A stretch of DNA of 42,127 bases from Candidatus Curtissbacteria bacterium RIFCSPHIGHO2_01_FULL_41_11. Its GTDB lineage: Bacteria > Patescibacteriota > Microgenomatia > Curtissbacterales > GWA2-41-24. The stretch lies in contig MFAZ01000012.1 in assembly GCA_001776335.1 (NCBI GenBank), positions 1 through 42,127 of the forward strand, read 5' to 3'. The first letter of the stretch is position 1, and the number at the start of each line of letters is the position of its first letter. The notes under the pieces were generated by a model. The model worked only from the letters and a program-made list of their open reading frames with translations. It did no database searches and was not told the origin of the DNA. Positions 5,970-39,906 of this stretch are shown in pieces. Position numbers and translations under genes: made by a program.

Positions 5970-5973
5970 CCAT

Positions 5974-6008
5974 AACTTTGAACTTTTAACTTTGAACTTT
6001 TAACTTTT
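5974..6008 (+). repeat. Heptamer tract AACTTTG/AACTTTT x5 immediately upstream of the virB4 start
   Basis: Units at 5974, 5981, 5988, 5995 and 6002. TGA/TAA at 5979, 5987, 5993 and 6001 cover all three frames. The tract ends 3 nt before the ATG at 6012. Confidence 0.85.
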
Positions 6009-6011
6009 TGT

Positions 6012-7907
6012 ATGAGTATCTTTAACCCTTTTTCCAAACCACAGCCGAAACAAACCCCATTAACTGCCAAAGAACAGCAATGGGCACAGACGCTGTCTGC
6101 TGGCACGGTTTCCGTCAAAGACATAATCGCCCCGCCGGCAATTGAAGTCGACTTTGATTTTCTCAAGGTAGGATCCACCTATTACCGCACATTGTTTGTT
6201 GTAGGTTATCCAAGATATGTTCAGGCAAATTGGCTTGCACCTTTAATTAACTTTGAACACACTCTGGAAATATCCATGTACACCTATCCTGTCGAGGCAA
6301 AAGGCGTTTTAGATGATCTCAGAAGAAAAATCACCGAAATGGAAGCAACCATCGCCACAGATATTCAACATGGTCGTCTCATCGACCCTGCGGTCCAAGC
6401 AGCTCTCGAGGATGCCCATATGCTTCAGGAAGAACTCGTCAAAGGTGCAGAACGATTCTTCCAGTTTGCCCTTTATGTCACAATCCCTGCAGATTCCATT
6501 GAAGAGTTGAATACAATCACCAAACAAGTTGAGTCTACGCTTGGCTCACTTCTGCTGGTCCCTAAACACGCCACACTTCAACAGGAAGACGCTTTCAAAA
6601 CCACCTTGCCTCAAGGCACAGACCATATTTATATCACCCGCAACATGGACACAACATCTCTGGCTACCACTTTCCCATTCATCTCCTCGTCTCTAACCTC
6701 AAACACAGGCGTTATGTACGGCATAAACGAACACAACGGTTCATTGGTTATTTTCGATAGGTTTAGCCAGGAAAATGCCAATTCCGTGATTTTTGCCAAA
6801 TCCGGAGCCGGAAAATCCTATCTGGTAAAACTCGAAGCCCTTAGGTCTCTCATGTTTGGAACAGAAGTAATTGTTATCGACCCCGAAGAAGAATACAAAA
6901 ATCTTTGCGAAGCAATTGGCGGGGAGTATATTTCCTTTAGCTTCAGTTCTCCGGCCAAAATCAACCCGTTTGATCTTTCTGGAATCTACGAAGAAGGTGA
7001 AAATGAACTCGGTCTTAAAATTCTTTCTCTCCATGGCCTGTTGAAAGTCATTATGGGAGAACTCACTCCCGCAGAAGATGCCATTTTAGACAGAGCCCTT
7101 GTTGCAACTTACAAAGCAAAGGGTATAACACCCGATCCGGCAACTCAACAGAATGAACCGCCTCTTATGGAAGACCTGTACAAGGCTCTTCTGGGAATGG
7201 AAGACCCCGGCGCCAAAGGCCTTGCCGACAGGCTTGAACGCTTCGTCAAAGGTTCACTTTTGGGAATTTTTAATCAGCAAAGCAATATCGATATCAAAAA
7301 CACTTTTACTGTTTTTTCAATTAAAGATCTTGAAGACGAACTTCGACCAATCGCCATGTTTCTGATTCTCGACTTTATTTGGACCAGAGTTAAAAACGAC
7401 ATCAGAAAACGTTTGCTCGTGGTGGACGAGGCTTGGTACATGCTTCAGTATCCTGACAGCGCAACGTTCATGTACAGTATCGCCAAACGCGCCAGAAAAT
7501 ATTATCTGGGACTAACTACAATTACCCAAGACGTCGAAGACTTTTTAAATACGGATTACGGCAAAGCAATTGTTACCAACTCCTCCATCCAGATTCTTTT
7601 AAAACAATCTCCGGCAGCCATCGATCAAGTAGCCGATGTCTTCTATCTCTCCGAAGGAGAAAAACACTTGCTTTTGGCAGCAGACATAGGAGAAGGCATA
7701 TTTTTTGCTGGCCCCAATCATGTTGCAATTCGTGTAATAGCTTCACAGGACGAACACTATTTGGTTACCACAAATCCTGAAGAAGTTATGGAAATGCAGA
7801 AAAAAGCCGAAGAAACCGAACAGCAGTTCCAACAGCAGCCTGCCTCGCCGACTGGCGGGCCTGCCTCGCCGACTGGCGGGCCTCCCCAAAATCCGCAAAC
7901 TCAATAG
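6012..7907 (+). CDS. virB4: VirB4/PrgJ-family type IV secretion ATPase
   Basis: Walker A FAKSGAGKSYLVK and Walker B RLLVVDEAWYML. N-terminal VirB4-type block YYRTLFVVGYPRYV. The C-terminal tail PASPTGGPASPTGGP is encoded by GC-rich 21-nt repeats. Confidence 0.85.
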   Translation: MSIFNPFSKPQPKQTPLTAKEQQWAQTLSAGTVSVKDIIAPPAIEVDFDFLKVGSTYYRTLFVVGYPRYVQANWLAPLINFEHTLEISMYTYPVEAKGVLDDLRRKITEMEATIATDIQHGRLIDPAVQAALEDAHMLQEELVKGAERFFQFALYVTIPADSIEELNTITKQVESTLGSLLLVPKHATLQQEDAFKTTLPQGTDHIYITRNMDTTSLATTFPFISSSLTSNTGVMYGINEHNGSLVIFDRFSQENANSVIFAKSGAGKSYLVKLEALRSLMFGTEVIVIDPEEEYKNLCEAIGGEYISFSFSSPAKINPFDLSGIYEEGENELGLKILSLHGLLKVIMGELTPAEDAILDRALVATYKAKGITPDPATQQNEPPLMEDLYKALLGMEDPGAKGLADRLERFVKGSLLGIFNQQSNIDIKNTFTVFSIKDLEDELRPIAMFLILDFIWTRVKNDIRKRLLVVDEAWYMLQYPDSATFMYSIAKRARKYYLGLTTITQDVEDFLNTDYGKAIVTNSSIQILLKQSPAAIDQVADVFYLSEGEKHLLLAADIGEGIFFAGPNHVAIRVIASQDEHYLVTTNPEEVMEMQKKAEETEQQFQQQPASPTGGPASPTGGPPQNPQTQ

Positions 7908-7937
7908 CCTGCCTCGCCGACTGGCGGGCCTGCCTCG
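7839..7937. repeat. GC-rich 21-nt hairpin unit CCTGCCTCGCCGACTGGCGGG: 2 copies, a 27-nt spacer, then 1.4 copies, straddling the virB4 stop
   Basis: Copies at 7839-7859, 7860-7880 and 7908-7928, with a partial copy at 7929-7937. The TAG stop (7905-7907) lies in the spacer. Each unit has an internal stem CTCGCC/GGCGGG with loop GACT. Confidence 0.85.
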
Positions 7938-12289: not shown

Positions 12290-12301
12290 AGCATTAGTTT
12301 A

Positions 12302-12343
12302 CTAGTTGCTAGTGGCTAGTTGCTAGTGGCTAGTGGCTAACTT
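12302..12343. repeat. Heptamer tract CTAGTTG/CTAGTGG x5 plus CTAACTT, filling the dnaN-dciA spacer
   Basis: Units at 12302, 12309, 12316, 12323, 12330 and 12337. The palindromic CTAG gives TAG in all six frames. The dnaN TAG stop (complement of 12337-12339) lies in the last unit. Confidence 0.9.
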
Positions 12344-13464
12344 TGCAGTCGGACCGGCATGACAATATGAAAGTAATCTCCTTCGTCAGGAATTGTAATT
12401 CGCCCGGGGTTCAAGCTTTCAATCATTTCGAAAAAAATATCATCGCTTTCGATAGATGATAAAACCTCGAGAAGATAACGAAAGTTGAAGGCAATTTCTC
12501 CTCCATTCCCGGTAAGTTCGATTTCCGAAGAGGCTTCATCCGACCCCACCTGATTGTTATTTGCAGAAACTGTCAAAATCCCTTTCGCCCCACCTTCAAG
12601 TTTTAGCTTAATAATGTTCCCTGAATCGCGGGCAAAAATAGACGCTACTCTTACCAGCCTTATCAGTTCTTCTCTAGAAATTTTGGCTTTTGAAGAAAAG
12701 CTCGTAGGGATAATTTTCTGCCAAGGGGGGAATTCACCCTCAATAAGTCTCGAGGTAAACTCCACATTGCCTATCCCAAAATTTACCTGATTCAAAGCAT
12801 CCGCCACAGTAACCAGGACAGGCTTGCCGCTTGCTTCTTCCCCAGCTTCACTGATTATTTTGAAAACCTCAAACAACGTTCTGGCGGGTGTTATTATCTT
12901 ACCCACAAAATCACCCTCTGCCGAAAACTGCTGGAAGCTTAACCTGTAACCATCGGTCGCTACCATTGAAAAGCTCTTTTTGGAAAACTCACACAGAACG
13001 CCCACAAGAGCCGGCCTCCCCTCGTCTTGTGAAGCCGAAAATGCCACCCTTAATATTGCTTTTGAAAACTCAAGTGCATCCAAAACCAGAGTTTTCCCTT
13101 TGTCTATTTTTGGTATCGCTGGGAAATCTTCAATAGGCATTGTCGCAAATCTCGCGCTAAATCTTTTGGAAGAAACCTTGACCTCCTCACCCAGTTTTTC
13201 AACAATCATCTCCCCTGGGGGTACCTGAGCGACAAATTCGGAAATTGGCCTCCCAGGGACCGTTGTTTTGCCTTCAACTTCAACATTGCATTCGGTATTT
13301 ACCCGCGTAGCAGTTTCCAAATCCGTCGAAAGAACCTCTATTTTCCCCTTGGAGGCAGAAATTAAAATGTTTGTGAGGATGGGCAGGTTTGCTTTTGTTT
13401 GAAGTGATTTATTTACGGAAACAAGCAGTTTGGAAAATTCTTCCTGGGAAATTTTAAATTTCAT
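12337..13464 (-). CDS. dnaN: DNA polymerase III beta sliding clamp
   Basis: MKFKISQEEFSKLLVSVNKSLQTKANLPILTNILISA..., with three-domain clamp length and a position downstream of dnaA. I prefer the ATG at 13464. The ORF-track start at 13521 is a GTG that would add 19 aa. Confidence 0.9.
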   Translation of the reverse strand: MKFKISQEEFSKLLVSVNKSLQTKANLPILTNILISASKGKIEVLSTDLETATRVNTECNVEVEGKTTVPGRPISEFVAQVPPGEMIVEKLGEEVKVSSKRFSARFATMPIEDFPAIPKIDKGKTLVLDALEFSKAILRVAFSASQDEGRPALVGVLCEFSKKSFSMVATDGYRLSFQQFSAEGDFVGKIITPARTLFEVFKIISEAGEEASGKPVLVTVADALNQVNFGIGNVEFTSRLIEGEFPPWQKIIPTSFSSKAKISREELIRLVRVASIFARDSGNIIKLKLEGGAKGILTVSANNNQVGSDEASSEIELTGNGGEIAFNFRYLLEVLSSIESDDIFFEMIESLNPGRITIPDEGDYFHIVMPVRLQS

Positions 13465-13521
13465 TTTTTCTTTGAGGATTCTTGTTGGGGCAGAAACATC
13501 GCCATTATATAGATTTTCCAC

Positions 13522-13727
13522 AAATTTTTAAACACCCAATCTCAAACTAAAGTTATATCAAAAATAGTAATATTCTTAGTATTCTTGTTTATATCTTAAA
13601 AACCAAGAGCCGCACCTGCCTGGAATTATGTCGAAAAAATTGTGGAAAACCTTCCACTTGTTGTTGATAAGTATGAAATTTTTGTGGGGGAACACAATGT
13701 TTTTGTAGAAAAGCTTTATGAGAAATA
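13522..13727. promoter_or_regulatory. Candidate oriC: AT-rich stretch plus a same-orientation cluster of DnaA-box-like 9-mers in the dnaA-dnaN spacer
   Basis: TGTGGAAAA at 13641-13649. TGTTGATAA at 13662-13670 (1 mismatch to TGTGGATAA). TGTGGGGGA at 13683-13691 (weak). TGTAGAAAA at 13704-13712. An AT-rich segment spans about 13522-13610. Confidence 0.5.
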
Positions 13728-15080
13728 TTATTGTTGGAAAATTGCCCTTATTCTCGAAATTTCGTCCCGTTGGCTTTGGTCAACAGCAACTAACCCCTCT
13801 ACCTTCTCTACACCATAAAGAACAGTGGAGTGATCTCGACCGCCGGTAATGTCGCCTACTCCCTCTAGGGGAAGACCCAAATCTTTTCTAAGTAAATACA
13901 TTAAAACTTGCCTGGCTCGAACAAAAGAGGCCTTTCTCTTTGGTCCGCACAAATCACCACTACTCAACCTAAAATGCCTAGACACTGCCTCAATAACCTT
14001 TCCTGGAGTTGGTTTTGGCTTGTTATCTCGCAAATTATTTTCAACAGAGCGCTTGACTTGCTCTAGAGTCAAAAGGCCAGATGACAACCTCAAAAGAGCA
14101 AGAACCTGAACCAAAGTTCCTTCAAGCTCTCTTGCGCCGCTTCCGCAAACATTCGCAATATAATCAATGATCTCGTTTGATAAAGCAACTCCCTTCTCCT
14201 TACACCTTGCTTTAAGAATTGCTGCTCGAAGCTCCACATCCGGAAGCTGTATATCAACTGTCATCCCACCCATCAGCCTACTTGCCAGCCTGTCTTGTAA
14301 TTTCCCAAGATCTTTAGGGTGCCTGTCTGCTGCAACTATTATTTGTCGCCCGGACATGTAAAGCTCATTGAAAGTGTAAAAAAATTCGTCTTGGGTACTT
14401 TCCTTGCCGGCGAAAAACTGTATGTCGTCAACCAGTAAAACATCCACGCCGCGGTATTTCTGCCTAAAAGCAGCTGTAGTGCGGCTGTTTAATGACTCGA
14501 TATAGTCGTTAGTAAATTTCTCAGCGCTGGCATAAAGCACTTTGGCATCAATAGATTTGTTCAATATCTCATTTGCAACCGCTTGCATTAAATGAGTTTT
14601 ACCAACGCCAGTTGGCCCCCAGACAAAAAGAGGGTTATACGCGTGACCAGGATTTTGAGCAGTCTGAGAGAAGGCAAGATAAGCAAGGTTATTTGAAGGA
14701 CCGGTCACAAAACGCTCAAAATTGTGAGCCGGATTAATACTTTCGTTTTTCCTAACGGTACCAAAGTACACTGGCGCTTCCCCAGAAAAAAGCGGTGTAG
14801 TAAAAGCCGGTTTATCAGTTTCCTCTTTCGAAACAATAAAAACTACCTCCCCAGAAAAACCGTTTTTTTCTGCAACCGTATTTATTTGCAATCGATACCT
14901 CGTTTCAAGCTGTTCTTTAATGAAATTATTTTTAACGCCAATGATCAAAATATCCCGCTCGTCTGATTTTTTAAGATCCAAAACTCGTGAACCGCCAAAC
15001 CACGTTCTGTAAGTTGACGGAGAAATTTGTGCTTTAAGGCCACTTAATATTTTGGCCCAAACTTTTTGACCACAGTTCAT
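13728..15080 (-). CDS. dnaA: Chromosomal replication initiator DnaA
   Basis: Walker A GPTGVGKTHLMQA, Walker B VLLVDDIQF, C-terminal DNA-binding HTH (GGRDHSTVLYGVEKV). I prefer the ATG at 15080. The ORF-track start at 15089 is a TTG. Confidence 0.95.
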   Translation of the reverse strand: MNCGQKVWAKILSGLKAQISPSTYRTWFGGSRVLDLKKSDERDILIIGVKNNFIKEQLETRYRLQINTVAEKNGFSGEVVFIVSKEETDKPAFTTPLFSGEAPVYFGTVRKNESINPAHNFERFVTGPSNNLAYLAFSQTAQNPGHAYNPLFVWGPTGVGKTHLMQAVANEILNKSIDAKVLYASAEKFTNDYIESLNSRTTAAFRQKYRGVDVLLVDDIQFFAGKESTQDEFFYTFNELYMSGRQIIVAADRHPKDLGKLQDRLASRLMGGMTVDIQLPDVELRAAILKARCKEKGVALSNEIIDYIANVCGSGARELEGTLVQVLALLRLSSGLLTLEQVKRSVENNLRDNKPKPTPGKVIEAVSRHFRLSSGDLCGPKRKASFVRARQVLMYLLRKDLGLPLEGVGDITGGRDHSTVLYGVEKVEGLVAVDQSQRDEISRIRAIFQQ

Positions 15081-15103
15081 GTTATTCAAATAGTTTTTGA
15101 AAT

Positions 15104-15230
15104 AGTGCTCTATGCAGGCTTATCGGTGTTTGTAGATCTGGGCTGAAGAAGATCTAAATTTTTTTAGAGCACTAATTATAATTGCAAAACTTTTCCACAG
15201 ATGTCAACACCCAAAATTTTTTGTGGAAAA
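15104..15230. promoter_or_regulatory. dnaA/rpmH divergent control region: a nested palindrome plus two facing DnaA boxes
   Basis: AGTGCTCTA (15104-15112) pairs with TAGAGCACT (15165-15173). This encloses TAGATCT (15133-15139) paired with AGATCTA (15150-15156). TTTTCCACA lies at 15191-15199 and TGTGGAAAA at 15222-15230. Confidence 0.45.
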
Positions 15231-15280
15231 CACCTCGCAAGGTACTTGATATATCGAAATAATTCTAGTAACCTTAACCC

Positions 15281-15418
15281 ATGCCAAAGCGAACTTATCA
15301 ACCAAAAAAAAGGAAAAGGGCAAAGACTCACGGGTTCAAAAGGAGAATGAGAACGACAGACGGACGCAAAGTTTTGAAGAGAAGGAGAGCAAAAGGCAAA
15401 AAAAGGCTCTCTGTCTGA
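15281..15418 (+). CDS. rpmH: 50S ribosomal protein L34
   Basis: A 45-aa ORF absent from the provided track: [48 protein letters not shown] stop at 15416-15418. It lies directly upstream of rnpA. Confidence 0.9.
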
Positions 15419-17286: not shown

Positions 17287-17378
17287 AATTGACCTAATTA
17301 TTCTAATTAACCTAATTGACCTAAATAAATTCTAATTCATAAATTTTTAAATTTCGACATTAGGATTTGAAAAATTAT

Positions 17379-17406
17379 TTAGAAATTAGAAATTAGCAAT
17401 TAGAAA
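17379..17406 (+). repeat. Heptamer tract TTAGAAA/TTAGCAA x4 upstream of the ligase-like gene
   Basis: Units at 17379, 17386, 17393 and 17400, giving a TAG every 7 nt and so covering all three frames. The ATG lies at 17426. Upstream, 17284-17345 is rich in CTAATT and TAATTGACCTAA repeats. Confidence 0.85.
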
Positions 17407-17425
17407 TTTATTCTGCACCTACTTA

Positions 17426-19749: not shown

Positions 19750-21015
19750 GTGTTCAAAAAGGTTATCTACAACACCGGCGCTCAAGTTATTGGTAAAGCA
19801 ACTACCGCAACAATCACCCTTTTAATTACTTTAATCATCGGCCGCACCTTGGGCCCTGCAGGCTATGGAGATTTCACTAAAATTTTCGTTTTCGTTGGCT
19901 ATTTCTATACGCTTGCTGATTTTGGTCTTAACGCCATCTATATTAAAATTGCCAAAGAAAATGAATTACCACACCTCAAATCATTACTCGGGCTTCGCAT
20001 AATAATCGGAGTCACACTCGCACTGATTGCAACCGTCTCTGGCTTTCTGCTTCCTTACGATCAGGCTGCCTCAACCGGCTTTAGCCCTCTCGTCAAAGTT
20101 GGAATTGCCATCGCCTCCATAACCATCATTACCCAAGCTCTTTACCTTACTGCCAACGCCTTCTACCAAAAAATTCTGCGCTATGATCTTTCAACAATTT
20201 CCGCAGCCGTAAGCTACGTTTTTGTTTTATTAACAGCTGCTCTCGTCACCTTCACATCAAAATCCCTCCTCGGCTACACAATAGCCTATCCGATTGGCGG
20301 ATTCATTCTAGTTCTGGTTGCTTTTGCGATTATCAAAAAAAGAACAAAAACTCTCCCCACTCCGACATTCTCAAAAAAAGAAGTCATAAAATTTGCAAAA
20401 CCTGCTTGGCCGGTCGGCCTCGCGCTCATCTTCAACCTTATCTACTTTAGAATTGATGTTTTTATTCTTTCAAACTACAGACCAAGTACGGAAGTGGGGC
20501 TCTATGGTCTTGCCTACCAATTTTTTGAAGCAGCTCTTGCGATCCCAATTTTTTTCTCAAACGCCATCTACCCTCCACTGGCCAATTTTTACAAAGTAAG
20601 CAGGCAGCGCTTCCAAAAAGAAGTTAAAAACTGGCTTTTTATCCTAAGTGGAGTTTCCATCCTTCTCACCATCACAATGTTCTCGGTGTCTTTTTTTATC
20701 TCGGCAATTTTTGGGAGAAATTTTGAAGGCTCTATGCCGGCCCTCCAAATTCTCTCCATAGGCCTTCCATTTTTCTTTATCTCTGCTCTCTTGTGGCATT
20801 TATTGATTATTTACGACAAGCAGAAATACCTCACTTTGATTTATGCAGTTGGCGCCGTCTTCAACATCATCGCCAATCTTATTTTTATCCCAACCTACGG
20901 TTACATCGCAGCAAGCATCATCACTGTTATTTCGGAAGCGCTAATCACCCTGCTGCTTGTAATAGCGATTCGTTCCAAAAACAATTTAACAATGAAACAA
21001 TTTAACAATTATTGA
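19750..21015 (+). CDS. Wzx/MOP-family polysaccharide flippase
   Basis: GTG start and about 12-14 TM helices. N-terminus AQVIGKATTATITLLITLIIGRTLGPAGYGDF is typical of oligosaccharide flippases. The last 10 codons are encoded by an octamer tract. Confidence 0.7.
   Translation: MFKKVIYNTGAQVIGKATTATITLLITLIIGRTLGPAGYGDFTKIFVFVGYFYTLADFGLNAIYIKIAKENELPHLKSLLGLRIIIGVTLALIATVSGFLLPYDQAASTGFSPLVKVGIAIASITIITQALYLTANAFYQKILRYDLSTISAAVSYVFVLLTAALVTFTSKSLLGYTIAYPIGGFILVLVAFAIIKKRTKTLPTPTFSKKEVIKFAKPAWPVGLALIFNLIYFRIDVFILSNYRPSTEVGLYGLAYQFFEAALAIPIFFSNAIYPPLANFYKVSRQRFQKEVKNWLFILSGVSILLTITMFSVSFFISAIFGRNFEGSMPALQILSIGLPFFFISALLWHLLIIYDKQKYLTLIYAVGAVFNIIANLIFIPTYGYIAASIITVISEALITLLLVIAIRSKNNLTMKQFNNY
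20981..21012 (+). repeat. Octamer tract ACAATTTA/ACAATGAA x4 at the flippase 3' end / rnhA 5' end
   Basis: Units at 20981, 20989, 20997 and 21005. It encodes NNLTMKQFNNY. Confidence 0.8.
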
Positions 21016-21017
21016 AT

Positions 21018-21428
21018 ATGCTTAATATTTTTTGCGACGGAGGGGCACGGGGTAATCCAGGACCGGCAGCTTATGGTTTTGTGATAAAAGAAAATGGTAA
21101 GACAATAAAAAAAGAAGGTAAAACACTCGGGATTGCAACCAATAATTTTGCCGAGTATACTGCCGTTATCGAAGCGCTTAAGTGGCTTTTGGATGGCTAC
21201 GAAGGTCAGGACCTTAACTTTTTTTTGGATTCGCAACTGGTAGCCTCCCAGCTGTCAGGCATTTACAAAGTTAAAAATGCCCAAATACGCGAACTGGTTC
21301 TTAAGGTAAAAAATCTTGAAACTAGCTTTGGTCAGATTAAATATATGTATATTCCAAGAGAACAAAACAAAGAAGCTGATGCAATGGTAAACAGAGCACT
21401 CGACTCAGAATTAGTAATTAGAAATTAG
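21018..21428 (+). CDS. rnhA: Ribonuclease HI
   Basis: CDGGARGNPGPAAYGFVI, NNFAEYTAVIEAL, LDSQLV, REQNKEADAMVNRAL. I prefer the ATG at 21018 over the TTG at 21012. The C-terminal SELVIRN and the TAG stop are encoded by heptamers at 21411-21431. Confidence 0.85.
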   Translation: MLNIFCDGGARGNPGPAAYGFVIKENGKTIKKEGKTLGIATNNFAEYTAVIEALKWLLDGYEGQDLNFFLDSQLVASQLSGIYKVKNAQIRELVLKVKNLETSFGQIKYMYIPREQNKEADAMVNRALDSELVIRN

Positions 21429-21431
21429 AAA
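21411..21431 (+). repeat. Heptamer tract TTAGTAA/TTAGAAA x3 forming the rnhA 3' end and stop
   Basis: Units at 21411, 21418 and 21425. Same family as 17379-17406. Confidence 0.8.
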
Positions 21432-21440
21432 TTCTCAGAC

Positions 21441-22007
21441 ATGGAGCTTAAAGAATATTTATCTCTTTTCAAAAAATATTCAGTTTTTATTCTGGTATGT
21501 CTCATTTTGGGAACGATAACCGGTACGCTGACTACAAATTTTCTACCTTCAGGGTTCAACCTTAACCAAACCTTTTATCTGGCCATTTCTCAGCCGGCAA
21601 CACAGCAAAGCTACGATTATGAGGGCTTCTACGCTCAGGAGAGAGCCAGAAACTTTACCGACAGCGCAGTCGCAATTCTTGAAAGTAGCGATTTTCAGAC
21701 AGAGGTAGCCCAAGAGGGGCAGGCCTTGATGGTTAAAAAGCTGGCCCCCCAGGTAATTCGCATAACAGCAATAGGAGACAATACTCAAAGCGCCAAAAAC
21801 CTTATGATAAAAACTACAGACGTATTCAATAAGAAATTTACAGATCTCGCAGGAGTCGAAAACGCCCTGTCCCTCAAGCAAATCGCAAATCCCCAGGAGC
21901 CCTCCTTCAAAAGAAGTAGCAGAAAAATCTATGCAGCAGCAGGAGCCGTTTTGGGTATCGTCACAGCTGTTGTGGTAATCAGCCTTAAATCATACTTCAG
22001 ACTATGA
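21441..22007 (+). CDS. Wzz-like (polysaccharide co-polymerase-like) bitopic membrane protein
   Basis: An N-terminal TM (VFILVCLILGTITG) and a C-terminal TM (AAAGAVLGIVTAVVVISL) flank a ~130-aa loop. The N-terminal MELKEYLSLFKK pattern is typical of chain-length determinants. Confidence 0.45.
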   Translation: MELKEYLSLFKKYSVFILVCLILGTITGTLTTNFLPSGFNLNQTFYLAISQPATQQSYDYEGFYAQERARNFTDSAVAILESSDFQTEVAQEGQALMVKKLAPQVIRITAIGDNTQSAKNLMIKTTDVFNKKFTDLAGVENALSLKQIANPQEPSFKRSSRKIYAAAGAVLGIVTAVVVISLKSYFRL

Positions 22008-28776: not shown

Positions 28777-28830
28777 TGTTAAATTGTTATTAAATTCTAC
28801 AGCAATACAGCAATATAACAATATAACAAT
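28759..28830. repeat. Inverted pair of 4-unit octamer arrays (ATTGTTAA-type, then ACAGCAAT/ATAACAAT-type)
   Basis: Left arm 28759-28790, an 8-nt centre, right arm 28799-28830. The arms are about 23/32 complementary. Confidence 0.75.
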
Positions 28831-28849
28831 CTTGAATCAAAATGATTAA

Positions 28850-30934
28850 TCATAGAGGCCATTTTTCCAACATAATAGATTTTCTATGTACATCAAATTG
28901 TTGATAAATTTCCTCGGTTAAAAACGGCATAAATGGATGAAGAATAATCATAACTTGTTTAAGAACATACTCCAAAGTTGCTTGGGCCTCTTCTCTGCTG
29001 GTCTTGGACTTCTCAATATATTTATCTGCAAAGTCATGCCATACAAAATTATAAATGTCTTCAACAGCCAGATGGAGTTCAAGCGATTCCAGATTTTTCG
29101 TCACCCTCGCTACTAGTCTCTCCAACTTGTCCTGTATCCAAATATCATCCTTATGTCTGTTGTCTGTAGTCGGTAGTCTGTTGTCTGTAGTCCTGAGTTC
29201 GATAACAAATCGTGCAATATTTCTGATTTTTGTCGCAAAATTCCTGAAATTTTTCCCGCGCTCATCTAGTGTTTGCTTGGAAACACGCCCGTCTCTTCCG
29301 GGGATGCTGTATGTATAAAGTGCCATTCTTGTTGCATCCACTCCCCACTGCCCGATTAAATAACCGGGCTCGATTCCGTTGCCCAGGGATTTACTAAACT
29401 TCCTCCCCTGCAAATCTCGCAGCATTCCGTGGAAAAACATAGTCTTAAATGGTTCCATTTTTGTAAAATAATTGGAAATCATAATCATTCTCGCAATCCA
29501 CAAAAATTTAATTTCCGGTGCTGATATTTCAAAATCCCAGGGGAAATACCTATCCAACAAATTTTCAACTTTCAACTTTCCACTCTCAACTTTGTTTAGC
29601 CAACCTAACGTGGATAGAGGCCAAAGTCCAGAGGAAAACCATGTATCCAAAACCTGCTCGTCTTGTTTCCACCCAACACCGGGAGACTTTAAAGAAACCT
29701 TTATTTCTTTCCCCCGATACCATACAGGAATTCTATGTCCCCACCAAAGAGATCTGGAAATACACCAATCATGAATACCTTTTAACCACTCGATCAAAAT
29801 TTTCTTATAGTTTCCGGGTAGAAATTTAATTGCATCCTTGTTAATTAGTTGAATAGCCTCCTTCGCAATCTCCTCGACTTTTACAAACCACTCCTCTGAA
29901 ATAATTGGCTCAACTACGCTTTTACACCTTTCGCAAACAGCGACGTTATGAACATAATCCTCTTCCTTTACCAATATGCCTTTTTCTTTAAGCTCAGGAA
30001 TCATTGCCTCTCGGGCTTCAGTGACTTTCATTCCCGCATACTTTCCAGCAGCATCAGTTAATCTTCCCTCTTTATTTATTACATTGATAATCGGCAAATT
30101 ATGCCTTTTGCCGATTTCATAGTCGATAAAATCATGGCCTGGTGTAACTTTAATAACACCAGTTCCAAAGTCCGGATCAACAACATCGTCTGCGACAACC
30201 CTCATCTTCTTTTTGCCGTTTAATGTTTCAATTTCAAATTCTTTCCCTACATAGTCCTTATACCTTTTGTCTTTAGGATTTACCGCCATTGCAGTGTCAC
30301 CAAATTTTGTTTCAGGTCTGACGGTTGCGAGAGTCAATGGTCCATACTTCAAGTAGTAAAGTTTCTCCTTCCTTTCTTCATACTCCACCTCCACATCTTC
30401 AATCGCAGTCCGGTCGCGTGGACACCATTGCACAATATATGGTCCTTTATAAATTAAGCCGGCGTCATAATATGTTTTAAATTCTTCAAAAACAGCTCTT
30501 TGGCATTTTTCTTCCAGTGTAAAAACCTCTCGGCTCCAGTCGGCAGACAGACCCATCATTCTCCAACTACCGGATAGCGATTTATAAATCTCGTCTTTAA
30601 ATTTCCATGCCAACTCCAGCCATTTTTCCCGCCCTAATTTTTGTTTAGAAAGCCCCTGTTTCGCTAAGTGTTTATCAAATGTTGACTCAAATTGAATGCC
30701 TGCATGATCTACACCTGGTAACAATAAAACATCAAATCCCTGCAGTCGCCTAAAACGCGCAACAGCATCCAGTATTGAATGCTGCATTGCGTGTCCGAGA
30801 TGTAATTCTCCAGTTAAATTGGGTGGAGGAATCAGCAAAGAATATTTTTTCTTGTTGGAGTTCGGATCCGCAGAGAATAATTTTTCTTTCTCCCAAAATT
30901 CATAAATTTCGGATTCTTTTTTAAATTTGTTCAT
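28850..30934 (-). CDS. valS: Valyl-tRNA synthetase (short form lacking the C-terminal coiled coil)
   Basis: HIGH-type LHLGHAMQH, KMSKS-type KFSKSLGN, ValRS editing-domain hallmark TGVIKVTPGHDFIDYEIG. It contains repeat-derived insertions at 29154-29195 and 29566-29593. Confidence 0.9.
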   Translation of the reverse strand: MNKFKKESEIYEFWEKEKLFSADPNSNKKKYSLLIPPPNLTGELHLGHAMQHSILDAVARFRRLQGFDVLLLPGVDHAGIQFESTFDKHLAKQGLSKQKLGREKWLELAWKFKDEIYKSLSGSWRMMGLSADWSREVFTLEEKCQRAVFEEFKTYYDAGLIYKGPYIVQWCPRDRTAIEDVEVEYEERKEKLYYLKYGPLTLATVRPETKFGDTAMAVNPKDKRYKDYVGKEFEIETLNGKKKMRVVADDVVDPDFGTGVIKVTPGHDFIDYEIGKRHNLPIINVINKEGRLTDAAGKYAGMKVTEAREAMIPELKEKGILVKEEDYVHNVAVCERCKSVVEPIISEEWFVKVEEIAKEAIQLINKDAIKFLPGNYKKILIEWLKGIHDWCISRSLWWGHRIPVWYRGKEIKVSLKSPGVGWKQDEQVLDTWFSSGLWPLSTLGWLNKVESGKLKVENLLDRYFPWDFEISAPEIKFLWIARMIMISNYFTKMEPFKTMFFHGMLRDLQGRKFSKSLGNGIEPGYLIGQWGVDATRMALYTYSIPGRDGRVSKQTLDERGKNFRNFATKIRNIARFVIELRTTDNRLPTTDNRHKDDIWIQDKLERLVARVTKNLESLELHLAVEDIYNFVWHDFADKYIEKSKTSREEAQATLEYVLKQVMIILHPFMPFLTEEIYQQFDVHRKSIMLEKWPL
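29154..29195. repeat. Period-7 tract / 21-nt tandem duplication inside valS (encodes TTDNRLP-TTDNRH)
   Basis: TGTCTGT TGTCTGT AGTCGGT AGTCTGT TGTCTGT AGTCCTG. The 12-mer TTGTCTGTAGTC recurs at 29160-29171 and 29181-29192. Confidence 0.8.
29566..29593. repeat. Heptamer tract CAACTTT x4 (one variant unit) inside valS
   Basis: Units at 29566, 29573, 29580 (CCACTCT) and 29587. It encodes KVESGKLKVEN between the conserved STLGW and YFPWD blocks. Confidence 0.8.
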
Positions 30935-30960
30935 ATTATTTTTCCAATTGAAAATATTTT

Positions 30961-30992
30961 TAGCAATTTAACAATTCAGCAATATAACAACT
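30961..30992. repeat. Octamer tract TAGCAATT TAACAATT CAGCAATA TAACAACT upstream of valS
   Basis: Four units, beginning 26 nt beyond the valS start codon (30934). Confidence 0.8.
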
Positions 30993-31235
30993 TAATTTTT
31001 TCTTTGAAAAATTGGTTTCTTTCACGTGCGAGTAAATTTTACCACTATTATTTTTAAAATACGTCTCGTTAATTTACCCCATCTGGCACGTGCAAAATTT
31101 TCTCAAAATCTGAGTCGGTGTCTGCCCCGCTAAAAGTTTGTGGTTTTAGGCTTAATGTGTCACGAAAGTTATCAACAAATTTTAAACTGAGTGACCGTTT
31201 CTATATATTTTTTACGGGGTTGATAACTCTCCATT

Positions 31236-32270
31236 TTAAAAGTAGAGTCCGGGATTTGCAGAGATACTCAATGGATTGACAAAGCGTTTTTGCCAATAGG
31301 CTGCAGTCGCAATCATTGCTCCGTTATCTACAGACAAGTTTTTTCCCGGGAAAAGAACCTGTAAATTATTCTTTCGCCCTTCACTAACCAGAGCATTTTC
31401 CAGAGCTGCATTTGCTGCAACGCCTCCCCCAACAACCACATATTTCACTTTATACTTTTCAGCAGCTCTTAAAGTTTTTTTAACCAGTACATCACAAACT
31501 GCGTTTTGAAATTCATATGCAACTTCAGGATATCTGTTCTCTGGAAACTTGTTTCTAGAAACTAAATTAACAACTGCGGTTTTAAGTCCAGAAAAAGAAA
31601 AATCAAAATTATCTTCAGCTATCATCGGTCTTGGAAACTTAACGTTTCTAGTTTCAAGTTTCCAGTTTCCAGTTTGAAAATTGCTTGCAATTTTCTCGAT
31701 CTCCGGTCCGCCCGGGTAAGAAAAGCCTAAAACTCGTGCCACTTTGTCAAAAGCTTCACCACAGGCGTCGTCTAAAGTTCCACCCAACCATTGAAATTTA
31801 TTGTGGTCTTTCATGAGAATCAAGTCCGTGTGTCCACCGGAAACAATCAAAGCTATTAGAGGAAACTCAGGAAGTTTAAAGTTTCCAGTGTCTAGTTTTT
31901 CGTTATTGATCCAATTGGCATAAACATGAGCAACCAAATGGTTAACAGCAACCAGTGGTTTATTAAAAACAAGCGCTAAAGTTTTAGCAGTCTCAACACC
32001 AATTAAAAGCGAACCAATAAGGCCCGGTCCATAAGAAACGGCGATTGCATCAACATCTTGCATTTCAAGACCAGACTCACTAAAAGCTCGATCAACGGTG
32101 GGAATAATTGCTTTAACTTGCTCCCTTGCTGCAACTTCCGGAACGATTCCACCATATGCTTTGTGCATTTCACTTGAGCTTGCCACAACATTCCCAAGAA
32201 TTTCTCTGCCGTTACGTACGATTCCAACACCAGTTTCATCACAAGTACTCTCAATACCTAATATAATCAT
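31236..32270 (-). CDS. tsaD: tRNA N6-adenosine threonylcarbamoyltransferase
   Basis: ILGIESTCDETGVGIV, HLVAHVYANW, VSGGHT, FSFSGLKT. It carries two heptamer-derived insertions. Confidence 0.9.
   Translation of the reverse strand: MIILGIESTCDETGVGIVRNGREILGNVVASSSEMHKAYGGIVPEVAAREQVKAIIPTVDRAFSESGLEMQDVDAIAVSYGPGLIGSLLIGVETAKTLALVFNKPLVAVNHLVAHVYANWINNEKLDTGNFKLPEFPLIALIVSGGHTDLILMKDHNKFQWLGGTLDDACGEAFDKVARVLGFSYPGGPEIEKIASNFQTGNWKLETRNVKFPRPMIAEDNFDFSFSGLKTAVVNLVSRNKFPENRYPEVAYEFQNAVCDVLVKKTLRAAEKYKVKYVVVGGGVAANAALENALVSEGRKNNLQVLFPGKNLSVDNGAMIATAAYWQKRFVNPLSISANPGLYF
31644..31678. repeat. Heptamer tract GTTTCNA x5 inside tsaD
   Basis: GTTTCTA GTTTCAA GTTTCCA GTTTCCA GTTTGAA. It encodes FQTGNWKLETRN. 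Confidence 0.85.
31874..31901. repeat. Second heptamer tract inside tsaD
   Basis: GTTTAAA GTTTCCA GTGTCTA GTTTTTC. It encodes EKLDTGNFKL, just before the conserved PLIALIVSGGHT. Confidence 0.75.
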
Positions 32271-32283
32271 CCAAAAAGTTTAC

Positions 32284-32302
32284 CCCGAGCGAAGTCGAAG
32301 GG
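32284..32302 (+). repeat. Compact copy of the CC[CT]GAGCGA-GTCGAAGGG element between tsaD and the DUF192 gene
   Basis: CCCGAGCGAAGTCGAAGGG at 32284-32302. Confidence 0.6.
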
Positions 32303-32309
32303 TCAAATG

Positions 32310-36088: not shown

Positions 36089-36979
36089 ATGAGACTGAAA
36101 CAGGCAATCCTAGCCACACTCGCATACCACGACATTTTTGATTACCCCTTAACAGCACAGCAGATACATAGGTATTTAATAATCAAAGCGAGTAAAACTG
36201 CACTCGAAAAAGAATTAGCCGTATTATTTCCTGCAAAGGAGTTCTACTCACTCACCAACCGTCAAAAAATAGCACTGATAAGAAAAAAACGCCAGAAGTA
36301 CTCAAATAAAAAGCTCAAACGAGCTTACTTCTACGCAAGCTTTCTTAAGCAGATTCCAAGTATAAAAATGGTTGCAATCTCAGGCGCACTTGCCATGGAA
36401 AACAGTCACAAAAGTGACGACATAGACCTTGTCATTGTCACCGCCAAAAACACCCTTTGGACTACAAGATTTCTTGCAAATATTCTCCTGTTTCCGTTCA
36501 AACGTAAGCCGCATTCTAGTCGACTAATCACTAGCCACTATGCACTAGCCACTAACAATAAAGCCTGCCTTAATATTTTCTTGGATGAATCCAACCTGAA
36601 AATTTCTCCGAGAAATATTTACACAGCCCACGAACTCTGCCAGCTAAAATCATTAATAGATATAAATAAAACCTATAGTAGATTAATCAAAGCTAACCTG
36701 TGGATTTACAAGTATTTACCAAATTGGGAACCTGAAGCTGAAAGACAATCGAGGAACGTCGATCGCAGACTGCGTCTAAAAGCTTTAGTCTTTAGTCGTT
36801 CAGCATTAGTCCTTGAAAACTTTCTCAAAAAATTTCAACTATTTTATATGAGAAAAAGAATTACCTCAGAGCAGATAGGGGAGCATCAACTATTTTTCCA
36901 CCCGTCAAATACTCAAGAGTGGGTTTTAAAAGAATATCAAAAGAGGTTAAAAAAGCTAAAATTGGCAAAGTCTTTTTAA
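36089..36979 (+). CDS. Putative nucleotidyltransferase-fold protein (Pol-beta-like)
   Basis: ISGALAMENSHKSDDIDLVIV resembles the GS-x-DxD nucleotidyltransferase motif. It contains two heptamer-tract insertions. Confidence 0.4.
   Translation: MRLKQAILATLAYHDIFDYPLTAQQIHRYLIIKASKTALEKELAVLFPAKEFYSLTNRQKIALIRKKRQKYSNKKLKRAYFYASFLKQIPSIKMVAISGALAMENSHKSDDIDLVIVTAKNTLWTTRFLANILLFPFKRKPHSSRLITSHYALATNNKACLNIFLDESNLKISPRNIYTAHELCQLKSLIDINKTYSRLIKANLWIYKYLPNWEPEAERQSRNVDRRLRLKALVFSRSALVLENFLKKFQLFYMRKRITSEQIGEHQLFFHPSNTQEWVLKEYQKRLKKLKLAKSF
36516..36557. repeat. Heptamer tract (CTAG/GCCAC family) inside the NTase-like gene
   Basis: CTAGTCG ACTAATC ACTAGCC ACTATGC ACTAGCC ACTAACA. It encodes SSRLITSHYALATN. 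This is the same family as 12302-12343, in the opposite orientation. Confidence 0.85.
36783..36817. repeat. Second heptamer tract inside the NTase-like gene
   Basis: CTTTAGT CTTTAGT CGTTCAG CATTAGT CCTTGAA. It encodes ALVFSRSALVLE. Confidence 0.75.
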
Positions 36980-39500: not shown

Positions 39501-39540
39501 TTTGCTCTAAAATTAAGAATTCTGCCTGCAATTCTGTTCA

Positions 39541-39572
39541 ATAACAATTTAACAATATAGCAATATAACAAT
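39541..39572 (+). repeat. Octamer tract ATAACAAT TTAACAAT ATAGCAAT ATAACAAT directly upstream of groES
   Basis: Four units ending 7 nt before the ATG at 39580. TAA/TAG falls in every frame. No Shine-Dalgarno is present. Confidence 0.85.
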
Positions 39573-39579
39573 TAATTTT

Positions 39580-39906
39580 ATGCTTAAACCTTTAGCCGGA
39601 TACGTACTAATAGAACCTGCCGAAAAAGAAACTAAAACTGCTTCCGGAATTTTACTTCCGGACTCTGCCGACGAAAAACCACAAGAGGGCAAAGTTTTGG
39701 CTTGCGGGGACGATGCAGTCGAAGAAGGCAAAACAATCAAATGCCCGGTCAAAGTAGGGGACAAGGTCGTTTACAAAAAGTGGGGCGGCAACGAAATCAA
39801 AGTCGAAGGCAAAGAACTCCTGCTCATAAAATTCGAAGACCTAATGGCAATAGTGACAAAGAGTAACTTAGAACTTGTCCAAGAATTAGTTGATAAAAAG
39901 AAATAA
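39580..39906 (+). CDS. groES: Co-chaperonin GroES (with a ~12-aa C-terminal extension)
   Basis: MLKPLAGYVLIEPAEKETKTASGILLPDSADEKPQEGKVLACG. It lies directly upstream of groEL. Confidence 0.95.
   Translation: MLKPLAGYVLIEPAEKETKTASGILLPDSADEKPQEGKVLACGDDAVEEGKTIKCPVKVGDKVVYKKWGGNEIKVEGKELLLIKFEDLMAIVTKSNLELVQELVDKKK

Follow-up and report, generated by a model that had tools for sequence, protein, structure and literature searches.

How a tandem array of 7-nt units comes to be read in frame inside tsaD, an essential gene, is the question raised by this locus. We analyzed the window (the whole stretch of DNA containing this gene, 42,127 nt) together with related and control loci, which are designated by L numbers.

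Heptanucleotide arrays in genes and spacers of the window

The genes and arrays concerned are as follows.

31236–32270, minus strand: tsaD, host gene of the focal tract
31644–31678, minus strand: focal tsaD array of five NNNAAAC units, site 2 (TRF, alignment to structures)
31874–31901, minus strand: second, weaker tsaD array (AAAAACT, AGACACT, GGAAACT, TTAAACT), site 1
31535–31563, minus strand: possible third, GAAAC-related remnant in tsaD (TRF)
28850–30934, minus strand: valS, 694 aa, without the C-terminal extension
29566–29593, minus strand: valS array (AAAGTTG, AGAGTGG, AAAGTTG, AAAGTTG)
29149–29194, minus strand: second valS array, sense unit WACAGAC, five copies (TRF, lag-7 matches, relatives)
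36089–36979, plus strand: NTase-like ORF, 296 aa
36516–36557, plus strand: ACTAGCC-type array, an insertion unique to this genome
36783–36817, plus strand: CTTTAGT-type array in a hypervariable region
5971–6011, plus strand: intergenic array AACTTTK, five copies, ending at the ATG at 6012
12297–12343, plus strand: array CTAGTKG, six copies, overlapping the dnaN stop codon and filling the spacer downstream of dnaN
17373–17411, plus strand: intergenic array TTAGAAA, four copies, separated by 14 nt from the downstream ATG at 17426
21403–21438, plus strand: array ATTAGAA, three copies, running across a stop codon and the short gap that precedes the ATG at 21441

The tsaD product scored above the equivalog cutoff of TIGR03723 (E = 4.5e-117, 390.7 bits vs. 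a cutoff of 296.1), aligned to the solved TsaD structures 8iey and 6nak, and contained the metal-/ATP-site motifs HxxxH, SGGHT, YPGGP and DNGAM. By score and motifs, it is TsaD, the tRNA t6A37 threonylcarbamoyltransferase. The valS product aligned to residues 17–706 of the 862-residue chain 1GAX (T. thermophilus ValRS) and, judged by an equivalog score above the curated cutoff (NF004349, E = 8.9e-245, 814.9 bits vs. 704), is a valine-tRNA ligase. For the NTase-like ORF, the only match was to Pfam Polbeta and below threshold (E = 0.0014, 19.1 bits vs. a cutoff of 26.9); the ORF is conserved and syntenic in relatives.

The coding strand of the focal tract (31678 to 31644) reads TTCAAAC, TGGAAAC, TGGAAAC, TTGAAAC, TAGAAAC and encodes FQTGNWKLETRN, flanked by IEKIA and FPRPM. 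The site 1 array encodes EKLDTGNFKL ahead of FPLIALIVSGGHT, and the valS array (29593 to 29566) encodes KVESGKLKVEN between STLGW and YFPWD. These tracts, and those of the NTase-like ORF, were present with the coordinates and peptides given in the initial annotation. The second valS array, which encodes TTDNRLPTTDNRHK in a variable linker of the anticodon-binding region, was missing from it. Within the possible third tract in tsaD lies the palindrome GTTTCTAGAAAC, and this tract pairs with the focal one as an inverted repeat (I1, 86% complementary). In relatives, heptamer tracts occur at the same relative position, 0.67–0.72 of the gene.

The significance of the period had been left as a point to be checked. 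With a threshold of at least 16 of 21 lag-7 matches, eight period-7 tracts were found in the window, vs. 0.03 expected from 30 dinucleotide shuffles. Four tracts were genic, vs. a mean of 0.07 and a maximum of one in 200 codon shuffles. TRF described the focal tract as period 7 with 4.6 copies and 92% matches, whereas the site 1 tract is weaker and passed only at 15 of 21. The repeats are imperfect, with unit matches of 78–92% across arrays (TRF). Since the period is 7 nt in the DNA itself (92% matches) and not merely 21 nt, the signal is DNA-driven. An origin by chance or codon usage, for which only the shortness of individual tracts speaks, retains next to no probability: neither shuffle reproduced the tracts, control loci were poor in them, and they recurred in independent assemblies. 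This origin was therefore rejected.

The density of tracts was 1.18/kb in intergenic DNA and 0.20/kb in genes, a difference of about six times. The initial annotation had assigned genic and intergenic arrays to the same unit families. This holds loosely; examples of pairs identical at 6 of 7 positions are TTTCAAC of valS with TTTGAAC/TTTTAAC of 5971–6011, and GTTTCTA of tsaD with TTTCTAA on the complement of 17373–17411. Genic–intergenic unit pairs with at most one mismatch made up 7.7%, vs. 3.7% in composition-matched shuffles. Across genes and genomes, unit families recurred about twice as often as expected from composition; AGTATCA is found in tsaD of L005 and valS of L016, and TAGAGTT in tsaD of L008 and a spacer of L014. 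Such recurrence hints at a sequence preference or templating.

Lineage-specific insertion and turnover of the arrays

In 216 kb from 12 related loci, 60 tracts were detected (0.278/kb), vs. 16 tracts in 1.03 Mb from 78 control loci (0.015/kb; 0.014/kb in GC-matched controls), the controls being mostly distant non-CPR TsaD loci from a metagenome scan with two peptide patterns. Other repeat periods were equal between related and control loci. Short 7-base arrays are about 20 times commoner in this Curtissbacteria-like CPR lineage than in other bacteria. When genome contigs were scanned with TsaD, the top match was only 46% identical, so that no close relative was obtained from this set. The source names of homologues point to Candidatus Curtissbacteria and other CPR bacteria.

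The arrays had been supposed to be lineage-specific insertions, and comparison with solved structures and syntenic relatives bore this out: every one of the named sites is either a lineage-specific insertion or a hypervariable linker. Compared with the solved TsaD structures, the focal tract adds 7–8 residues ahead of FPRPM and the site 1 tract 8–9 residues. The valS array at 29566–29593 adds 8 residues to 1GAX; this insertion is absent in L008, L010 and L013, and L016 has 4.5 copies of AAAATGG there. With the array at 36516–36557, the NTase-like protein is 9 residues longer at this point than its seven syntenic orthologues. The region of 36783–36817 is hypervariable, and all relatives carry heptamers in it. 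At the 29149–29194 site of valS, relatives carry four copies of CAGTCTA (L005) or GGTTCAC-type units (L011). Surface loops had been expected for the inserts; in the AlphaFold model of TsaD, both are coil with lowered pLDDT (66 for residues 201–210, the focal insert; 70 for residues 121–130, site 1).

The same TsaD loop carries different unit families in different species (GAAACTN, GACAATG, CAAAAGT, CAACTGA and ACAGTTK) and no heptamer family in the outgroups L017–L020. The GAAACTN family is also found at site 2 in L007, L008 and L011. Site 1 is completely different between L010 and L013, which are about 80% identical in DNA. Among 120 homologues, site 1 lengths cluster at 32, 39 and 46 residues, that is, in 7-residue steps (three heptamers). 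The insert peptides show an identity peak of 12–13% at lag 7, vs. 3–8% at most other lags; at site 2, identity is also high at lag 2. The GAAACTN array is still strongly periodic in the DNA of species only 58–64% identical in TsaD, so ongoing homogenisation or selection is needed.

Orthologues of minimal length already contain proto-repeats (GGAAACCGAAAAC in L005), and the tracts grade slowly into the flanking sequence. Thus, of the two routes proposed earlier, insertion or expansion, expansion in place is the likelier. In some relatives the loops also contain GC-rich hairpin-type elements (tsaD of L010, L011 and L022; valS of L005, L010 and L015), and some heptamer arrays of relatives are interrupted by hairpin elements.

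The initial annotation had suggested looking for unit-number polymorphism among related genomes. None was seen among near-identical strains (at least 99.8% identity, consensus assemblies): 11 tracts showed no differences in five assemblies 99.84–99.99% identical to the window, nor did the tracts in the near-identical pairs L008/L009 and L011/L012. About 51 differences were counted among near-identical strains, with none in tracts and no tract indels. The assemblies are population consensuses, and for this reason slippage intermediates and length variants did not show up in them.

Stop codons in genic and intergenic arrays

It had been claimed that in each genic tract the unit whose stop would fall in frame is the one that deviates from the consensus. 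This is true in valS and in the two NTase-like tracts, where the in-frame triplets are TAT at 36539–36541 and TCA at 36800–36802, but not in the focal tsaD tract. There, the consensus of the tract is TGGAAAC, which has no stop in any of the three frames and is found out of frame as well, in unit 2. In relatives, this family is likewise stop-free (GAAACTC/GAAACTG in L007, GAAATCC in L008). The deviation in the other three tracts is forced by any open reading frame; being a logical necessity, the pattern is not independent evidence.

At the sequence level, a stop-codon filter on genic tracts is visible. Stop-bearing consensus units were found on the sense strand of 16 of 40 genic tracts (40%), vs. 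58% under the composition null (P = 0.0045), and on 30 of 40 intergenic tract strands (75%; Fisher P = 0.003). The consensus is stop-free in 60% of genic tracts, and their sense strand is 42% A. The filter works mainly via the surviving unit and its orientation, and the ablation of one stop is a minor route. In short, the sequence facts reported earlier were upheld, as were loop insertion and the stop filter; the stop-ablation wording for the focal tract, ablation as the main route, strain polymorphism and the full analogy to Rickettsia palindromic elements (RPEs) were not.

A special stop-bearing character of the intergenic families (a three-frame stop wall) was considered and rejected, their stop content fitting composition-matched shuffles. 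Stop-bearing units were found at 75% on each strand, vs. 68% (plus) and 56% (minus) expected, and units with a stop on either strand at 90%, as expected (90%). The stop richness of these families is no more than their AT-rich composition predicts.

Origin of the arrays and comparison with known systems

We consider it probable that the focal tsaD tract is a member of a lineage-wide population of heptanucleotide arrays, which arise by a slippage-type process and are carried as near-neutral passengers in permissive loops. In the Curtissbacteria-like lineage, a slippage-type process with a strong preference for the 7-nt register would seed arrays from local proto-repeats and expand them; we infer replication slippage or unequal exchange as the candidate processes. 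The majority of arrays lie in intergenic spacers and 5′UTRs. A coding array would persist only where the protein tolerates added residues (surface loops, linkers), where the net length is a multiple of three, giving effective growth steps of 21 nt and 7 residues, and where no stop falls in frame, mostly because the sense unit is stop-free and less often because the in-frame unit differs. Persistence would also require an A-rich sense strand, which gives hydrophilic K, S, T, N, Q and E residues. Read through the three frames in turn, a heptamer array yields peptide insertions with a 7-residue periodicity. Arrays are stable in near-identical strains and are replaced or turned over between species, so that the same loops come to hold different unit families. 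In all likelihood, the inserts are near-neutral passengers and not functional modules. Several points count against this account. Simple slippage leaves the choice of the 7-nt register unexplained, and slippage intermediates were not seen. The recurrence of unit families across genes and genomes and the lasting periodicity of the GAAACTN array, both described above, also weigh against it. In several species, moreover, an array directly precedes the start codon of groES, which could indicate a function.

The groES arrays bear on the alternative that the arrays are functional nucleic-acid elements, either sites bound in a 7-nt register by an oligomeric DNA- or RNA-binding protein or 5′UTR elements for translation or stability, with the genic copies as spill-over or dual-use. 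Arrays with differing units lie in the 5′UTR of groES in the window and in L010, L011, L014 and L022; the outgroups L017 and L018 have none there. Two arrays of the window (5971–6011 and 17373–17411) lie immediately upstream of start codons. Several intergenic families have TAG at period 7, and families recur beyond the composition expectation. HutP reads UAG-N4 repeats; HutP-like arrays were rejected here, TAG occurring in only some families and a common motif being absent. For the short tandemly repeated repetitive sequences (STRRs) of heterocystous cyanobacteria, an effect on transcript stability or on translational coupling has been proposed (PMC2670836). Nevertheless, units at one position differ completely between species, the stop and TAG content of intergenic units equals the composition null, the tracts lack RNA structure, and the genic ones lie, passenger-like, in protein-permissive loops; we regard this alternative as unlikely. 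Selection at the protein level appears slightly more doubtful still. By this reading, heptamer expansion would supply new flexible loops or disordered stretches through which TsaD, ValRS and further proteins are adapted, as has been proposed for the tandem repeats of Borg elements. It would fit the presence of inserts at the same loops in most of the 120 homologues, their hydrophilic character and lowered pLDDT, the retention of the GAAACTN-derived peptide L/F-E/Q-T/I-G/R-N-x-K in several species, and the disordered regions created by Borg repeats (PMC9879509). However, insert sequences at one site differ between species, and minimal loops suffice in many relatives, E. coli and T. maritima. 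All four residue differences of a 99% identical TsaD variant (P0001) lie within the two tracts, suggesting relaxed constraint. The same loops also take up unrelated GC-rich hairpin elements, a sign of permissiveness rather than of any specific function.

Because a one-unit change of a 7-nt repeat shifts the frame, the tracts might be contingency loci, hypermutable repeats that switch genes on and off; phase-variable heptanucleotide repeats exist in Haemophilus. This is highly improbable here: the host genes tsaD and valS are essential, the genic arrays are imperfect, and the unit number was constant in all 11 tracts across the five near-identical assemblies and in the two strain pairs. Phase variation was rejected at the strain level on this last ground. 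It is very unlikely, too, that the tracts are footprints of small RPE- or MITE-like mobile elements inserted in frame. The outcome would be the same, in-frame additions to unrelated housekeeping genes, and relatives do have GC-rich hairpin-type elements in the same loops of tsaD and valS. The tracts, however, are direct tandem arrays of 28–46 nt without inverted repeats or a shared long consensus, and they do not fold stably (z-scores −0.5 to +1.4). An RPE measures about 150 bp and encodes a conserved peptide (PMC10969869). Neither target-site duplications nor a conserved element consensus was seen flanking the arrays, and the only pair of local inverted-repeat arms, 81 nt apart, is within tsaD. 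An RPE or MITE identity was rejected because palindromy and structure are absent.

A further reading, in which a dedicated, lineage-restricted process (a factor templating, seeding or binding heptamers) lies behind the 7-nt register in place of generic slippage, is improbable; the recurrence of families across unrelated genes and genomes, the persistence of DNA periodicity at orthologous sites at about 60% protein identity, and the arrays before start codons are compatible with it. It would perhaps be analogous to whatever makes STRRs in heterocystous cyanobacteria and, if true, would continually supply new protein loops and 5′UTRs to an otherwise reduced CPR genome. A literature search for heptamer repeats yielded no relevant description from CPR, Microgenomates or Patescibacteria.

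In this lineage, a non-triplet microsatellite colonises essential genes and is translated in all three frames by rotation. For a genic array, the viable changes are those of three units at a time, and it has to be stop-free in every frame. To our knowledge, in-ORF repeat systems described so far have units divisible by three. The variable-length loops of TsaD, ValRS and other Microgenomates markers derive from repeat DNA and not from homologous residues, and should be masked in alignments for annotation and phylogenomics. The recurrent insertion sites also map where essential enzymes accept added residues.

Among known systems, RPEs are dispersed palindromic elements of about 150 bp encoding a conserved peptide, and they too are lineage-specific in-frame additions to unrelated housekeeping proteins at fold-compatible sites (PMC10969869). 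The comparison made in the initial annotation is apt in this outcome, but not in size, palindromy or RNA structure: the tracts here are non-palindromic, their copies have only the 7-nt units in common, and their peptides vary by site and species. Like contingency repeats, the arrays are short tandem repeats in or beside genes with a unit that is not a multiple of three; they differ in showing no copy-number variation among strains and in their hosts, which are essential housekeeping genes in place of surface or virulence ones. Borg tandem repeats, which create amino-acid repeats, are likewise genome-specific, pervasive and A-rich in intergenic DNA and ORFs. Within ORFs they too give rise to stretches of low complexity that are probably flexible, and they change rapidly from one relative to the next, but every in-ORF unit is divisible by three and the repeats are usually perfect (PMC9879509). 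Here, the unit is 7 nt and imperfect, the setting is a bacterial chromosome, and the arrays are short (4–6 units in genes of the window, up to 8–9 in relatives).

Reportedly, Vioque described STRR heptamers in an RNase P RNA gene in 1997; Rfam and tRNA scans of the window gave no matches and so offered no RNA-gene parallel to that cyanobacterial case. The STRR1–3 units presumably differ from the families here. STRRs are dispersed 7-bp tandem arrays of several families, mostly intergenic and of unknown function (PMC2670836), and those in the P6b stem of the Nostoc tRNA-Leu intron have genotype-dependent copy numbers and extra non-heptamer elements (PMC3488679). The present arrays resemble them as 7-bp tandem arrays (TRF period 7, lag-7 excess) of several dispersed, mostly intergenic families that recur across loci. 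Both systems also have arrays inside functional genes at tolerant positions, and the elements inserted in the Nostoc intron arrays are matched by the hairpin elements within heptamer arrays of relatives. The differences are that the host is a member of the CPR (Microgenomates/Curtissbacteria) and not a heterocyst-forming cyanobacterium, that arrays lie in frame within essential protein-coding genes, where the three frames are used in rotation to read them, and that most of the arrays form no hairpins. Heptanucleotide arrays are thus present in a second lineage, unrelated to cyanobacteria, and the question of why 7 nt becomes open to comparative genomics.

Heptamer tracts in tsaD, valS and an NTase-like gene

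A tract was defined by at least 16 matches per 21 lag-7 comparisons. The window, which is gene-dense with ~42% GC, contained eight period-7 tracts, compared with 0-3 tracts for each other period from 4 to 15 and a mean of 0.03 in dinucleotide-preserving shuffles. Four tracts were genic, against a mean of 0.07 and a maximum of 1 in 200 within-ORF codon shuffles. The period-7 signal reported in the initial annotation is real and highly significant. Since the periodicity was present at 7 nt and not at 21 nt alone, it belongs to the DNA itself; a protein repeat of 7 residues is not its source. The sequences, coordinates and peptides quoted in that annotation were all correct when checked against the window. 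The genes, and the period-7 arrays called by Tandem Repeats Finder, are as follows.

31236-32270, minus: tsaD (TIGR03723, E=4.5e-117)
28850-30934, minus: short valine-tRNA ligase, valS, 694 aa (profile match)
36089-36979, plus: NTase-like ORF (sub-threshold Polbeta nucleotidyltransferase match only)
31644-31675: focal array in tsaD, 4.6 copies, 92% matches, consensus GTTTCCA
29563-29593: valS array
29155-29192: second valS array, missed by the initial annotation, GTCTGTA x5.4, peptide TTDNRLPTTDNRHK
36529-36554: NTase-like array
36783-36797: NTase-like array

Of the 862 residues of the T. thermophilus enzyme, the 694-aa ValRS aligned with positions 17-706. It lacks the C-terminal extension, the coiled-coil domain.

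The tracts are insertions relative to homologues, as had been proposed. In alignments with the solved TsaD structures 8iey and 6nak, both tsaD tracts (site 1, 31874-31901; site 2, 31644-31678, before FPRPM) coincided exactly with gaps, of 8-9 residues at site 1 and 7-8 at site 2. When ValRS was aligned with the T. thermophilus enzyme (1GAX), the valS tract at 29566-29593 opened a gap of 8 residues following STLGW; that at 29149-29194 lies within a variable linker, which is shorter by just 2 residues in 1GAX. The NTase-like protein was aligned with seven syntenic orthologues: 36516-36557 was a 9-residue insertion in this genome only, and the tract at 36783-36817 lay within a stretch that was hypervariable throughout. 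Surface loops had been expected, and in the AlphaFold model of TsaD (mean pLDDT 88) both inserts were coil, with pLDDT of 70 and 66 in the 10-residue blocks 121-130 and 201-210, compared with 82-97 in most others.

A heptamer array is translated through all three frames, and thus no ORF can contain a stop-bearing unit repeated perfectly. According to the initial annotation, the unit whose stop would fall in frame is the one that deviates. In valS 29566-29593 and both NTase-like tracts, the sole in-frame unit indeed lacked the stop borne by its neighbors. Since any intact ORF forces this absence, it is not independent evidence. The claim failed for the focal tsaD tract, where the in-frame TGG is part of the consensus unit TGGAAAC, which is stop-free and was found out of frame too. 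The GAAACTN family lacked stops in the homologous loci L007 and L008, and P0001, a 99%-identical TsaD variant, has TTG at this position. A stop-codon filter on genic tracts is detectable and real. Among 40 genic tracts, 40% had a stop in the sense-strand consensus, versus 58% in composition-matched shuffles (P=0.0045). Intergenic tract strands were stop-bearing in 75% versus 40% of genic ones (Fisher P=0.003), the 75% showing no excess over its own composition-matched null. Genic sense strands were 42% A, and the commonest residues were K, S, T, L, N and Q.

Distribution and turnover

The heptamer phenomenon is lineage-wide. The nearest TsaD homologues came from sources with names such as Candidatus Curtissbacteria, and the syntenic contigs of relatives (TsaD identity 55-67%) carried 2-10 period-7 tracts apiece. 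The 12 non-redundant lineage loci contained 60 tracts in 216 kb (0.278/kb), compared with 16 in 1.03 Mb (0.015/kb) in 78 control loci and 0.014/kb in GC-matched controls. For periods other than 7, densities were alike in both sets. Tract density was about six-fold higher in intergenic (1.18/kb) than in coding DNA (0.20/kb). Four more distant loci resembling the candidate phyla radiation (CPR), L017-L020, had almost no tracts.

Excess period-7 tracts were also observed in some loci beyond the core lineage, namely L033 (4 period-7 and 6 period-8 tracts; GC 37%; TsaD 42% identical), L021, and the GC-rich L048 and L088. The trait may occur in other lineages.

Genic tracts recurred at the same relative positions in tsaD, valS and the NTase-like gene across species, but with differing units. 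The families at TsaD site 2 were:

GAAACTN: window, L007, L008, L011
GACAATG: L014
CAAAAGT: L021
CAACTGA: L022
ACAGTTK: L005

At site 1, L010 and L013 had unrelated families despite ~80% DNA identity. At the ValRS STLGW site, L008, L010 and L013 lack an insert, and L016 carries AAAATGG x4.5.

Among 120 TsaD homologues, the two loop regions were 29-68 and 35-86 residues long, with E. coli near the minimum (30 and 37). Site-1 lengths grouped at 32, 39 and 46 residues, although these homologues are mutually related and the counts are not independent events. Identity within insert peptides peaked at lag 7 (12-13% versus 3-8% at most other lags); site-2 peptides also gave 12.8% at lag 2. The 7-residue length clusters and the lag-7 peak are the signature of three-heptamer growth steps. 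Unit families were common to different tracts about twice as often as in composition-matched shuffles, an excess to which orthologous tracts contribute.

In five independent assemblies 99.84-99.99% identical to the window, none of ~51 differences fell in any of the 11 tracts of period 7 or 8, and unit numbers were constant. The near-identical pairs L008/L009 and L011/L012 likewise had no tract differences. The suggested unit-number polymorphism was thus not found among near-identical strains, and strain-level switching is ruled out by this constancy. Over longer times the arrays are the fastest-changing gene parts. All four residue differences in P0001 lay within the two tsaD tracts, for which we estimate a chance probability of ~3e-5 (~25 of 342 residues are in tracts).

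Expansion within coding loops, with only frame- and stop-compatible versions kept, is right in outline as an interpretation; three details of the initial account are corrected, namely the stop-ablation argument, the mode of origin and the comparison with Rickettsia palindromic elements. That account named insertion as well as expansion. Proto-repeats are already present in minimal-length orthologues (GGAAACCGAAAAC in L005) and arrays fade out into flanking sequence, both of which make in-place expansion the likelier. Any account of how the arrays arise, and of why their register is 7 nt, is inferred.

Other repeats

Additional repeats and two replication genes were observed in the window.

20979-21011, 28795-28834, 30959-30995, 39539-39575: second class of repeats, tandem octamer arrays, AACAATNT / AGCAATNT type, at gene boundaries
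7838-7883, 7907-7937: GC-rich, hairpin-capable 21-nt unit GCCTGCCTCGCCGACTGGCGG
32278-32304, minus: small GC-rich element GACCCTTCGACTTCGCTCGGGGTAAAC, filling the DUF192-tsaD spacer
17287-17328: period-9 array AATTGACCT AATTATTCT AATTAACCT AATTGACCT
12337-13521, minus: dnaN
13728-15089, minus: dnaA

One octamer array occupies the groES 5'UTR as far as the ATG at 39580; upstream of the array are an inverted repeat and a site resembling a promoter, TTGACA-17-TAAAAT. At this position relatives have heptamer arrays with other units, and the outgroups L017 and L018 have none. Another octamer array lies upstream of valS. There, a CACGTG motif pair (TTTRCACGTGG ... GCACRTGAAAG) is conserved in most relatives examined (L005-L008, L010, L013-L018, L022); in the window (30935-31010) the pair is missing and the octamer array is found instead. 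The pair may be a regulatory element whose place the array took.

The 21-nt unit forms 2.2 in-frame copies at the C-terminus of a VirB4/DUF87-like ATPase (PASPTGG PASPTGG) and recurs immediately past its stop codon. A similar GCCTGCC...GGCAGGC hairpin breaks the heptamer array in the L022 TsaD loop. The period-9 array shares its spacer with a TTAGAAA heptamer array, upstream of a Wzy_C-family gene at 17426. A CTAGTKG heptamer array begins at the dnaN stop codon. The minus-strand dnaN and dnaA lie opposite rpmH-rnpA-yidC-jag on the plus strand (12337-15300), an arrangement that places the replication origin probably near 15.1-15.3 kb; GC skew showed no sign switch at this putative origin region.

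Comparison with known repeat systems

The initial annotation compared the tracts to Rickettsia palindromic elements (RPEs). The comparison is apt for the outcome, but not for the element type. RPEs are palindromic and ~150 bp long (PMC10969869), whereas the heptamer tracts contained no palindromes and had RNA structure no stronger than in shuffles; an RPE-like identity is therefore rejected. The sole local inverted repeat, inside tsaD, has one arm in the focal tract and the other in a GAAAC-related remnant 81 nt away. GC-rich hairpin-type elements were found in frame at the same loops in tsaD of L010, L011 and L022 and in valS of L005, L010 and L015; thus, these loops are general landing pads. 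CCCTTCG...CTCAGGG elements related to GACCCTTCGACTTCGCTCGGGGTAAAC, observed in spacers of relatives (L011, L018, L017, L005, L015) and in frame in their ValRS/TsaD loops (peptides FANAQGKP, FDSAQDKP, SAIAQGRP), are a truly RPE/MITE-like situation.

Our literature search, of incomplete coverage, returned no description of heptamer arrays from CPR bacteria, which is an absence of evidence and no more. The nearest known match is the short tandemly repeated repetitive (STRR) heptanucleotide sequences of heterocystous cyanobacteria. Vioque (1997, cited in PMC2858038) reportedly described them inside the RNase P RNA gene. STRRs are tandem 7-bp units, chiefly intergenic, and their function is unknown (PMC2670836). 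They also occur within a tRNA-Leu intron, with variable copy number and extra elements inserted (PMC3488679). At tsaD site 1 of L013 (808-873), the array consists of a (GACTACR)n block followed by an opposed (NGTAGAC)n block, on either side of the 12-nt perfect palindrome CTACGGCCGTAG; it can thus form a hairpin, as can the P6b repeats of the Nostoc intron, and its peptide TDYRLQTTAVDSRQSTV is common to many homologues. The tandem repeats of Borgs form another parallel, differing from the 7-nt tracts in that their in-ORF unit lengths are always divisible by three (PMC9879509).
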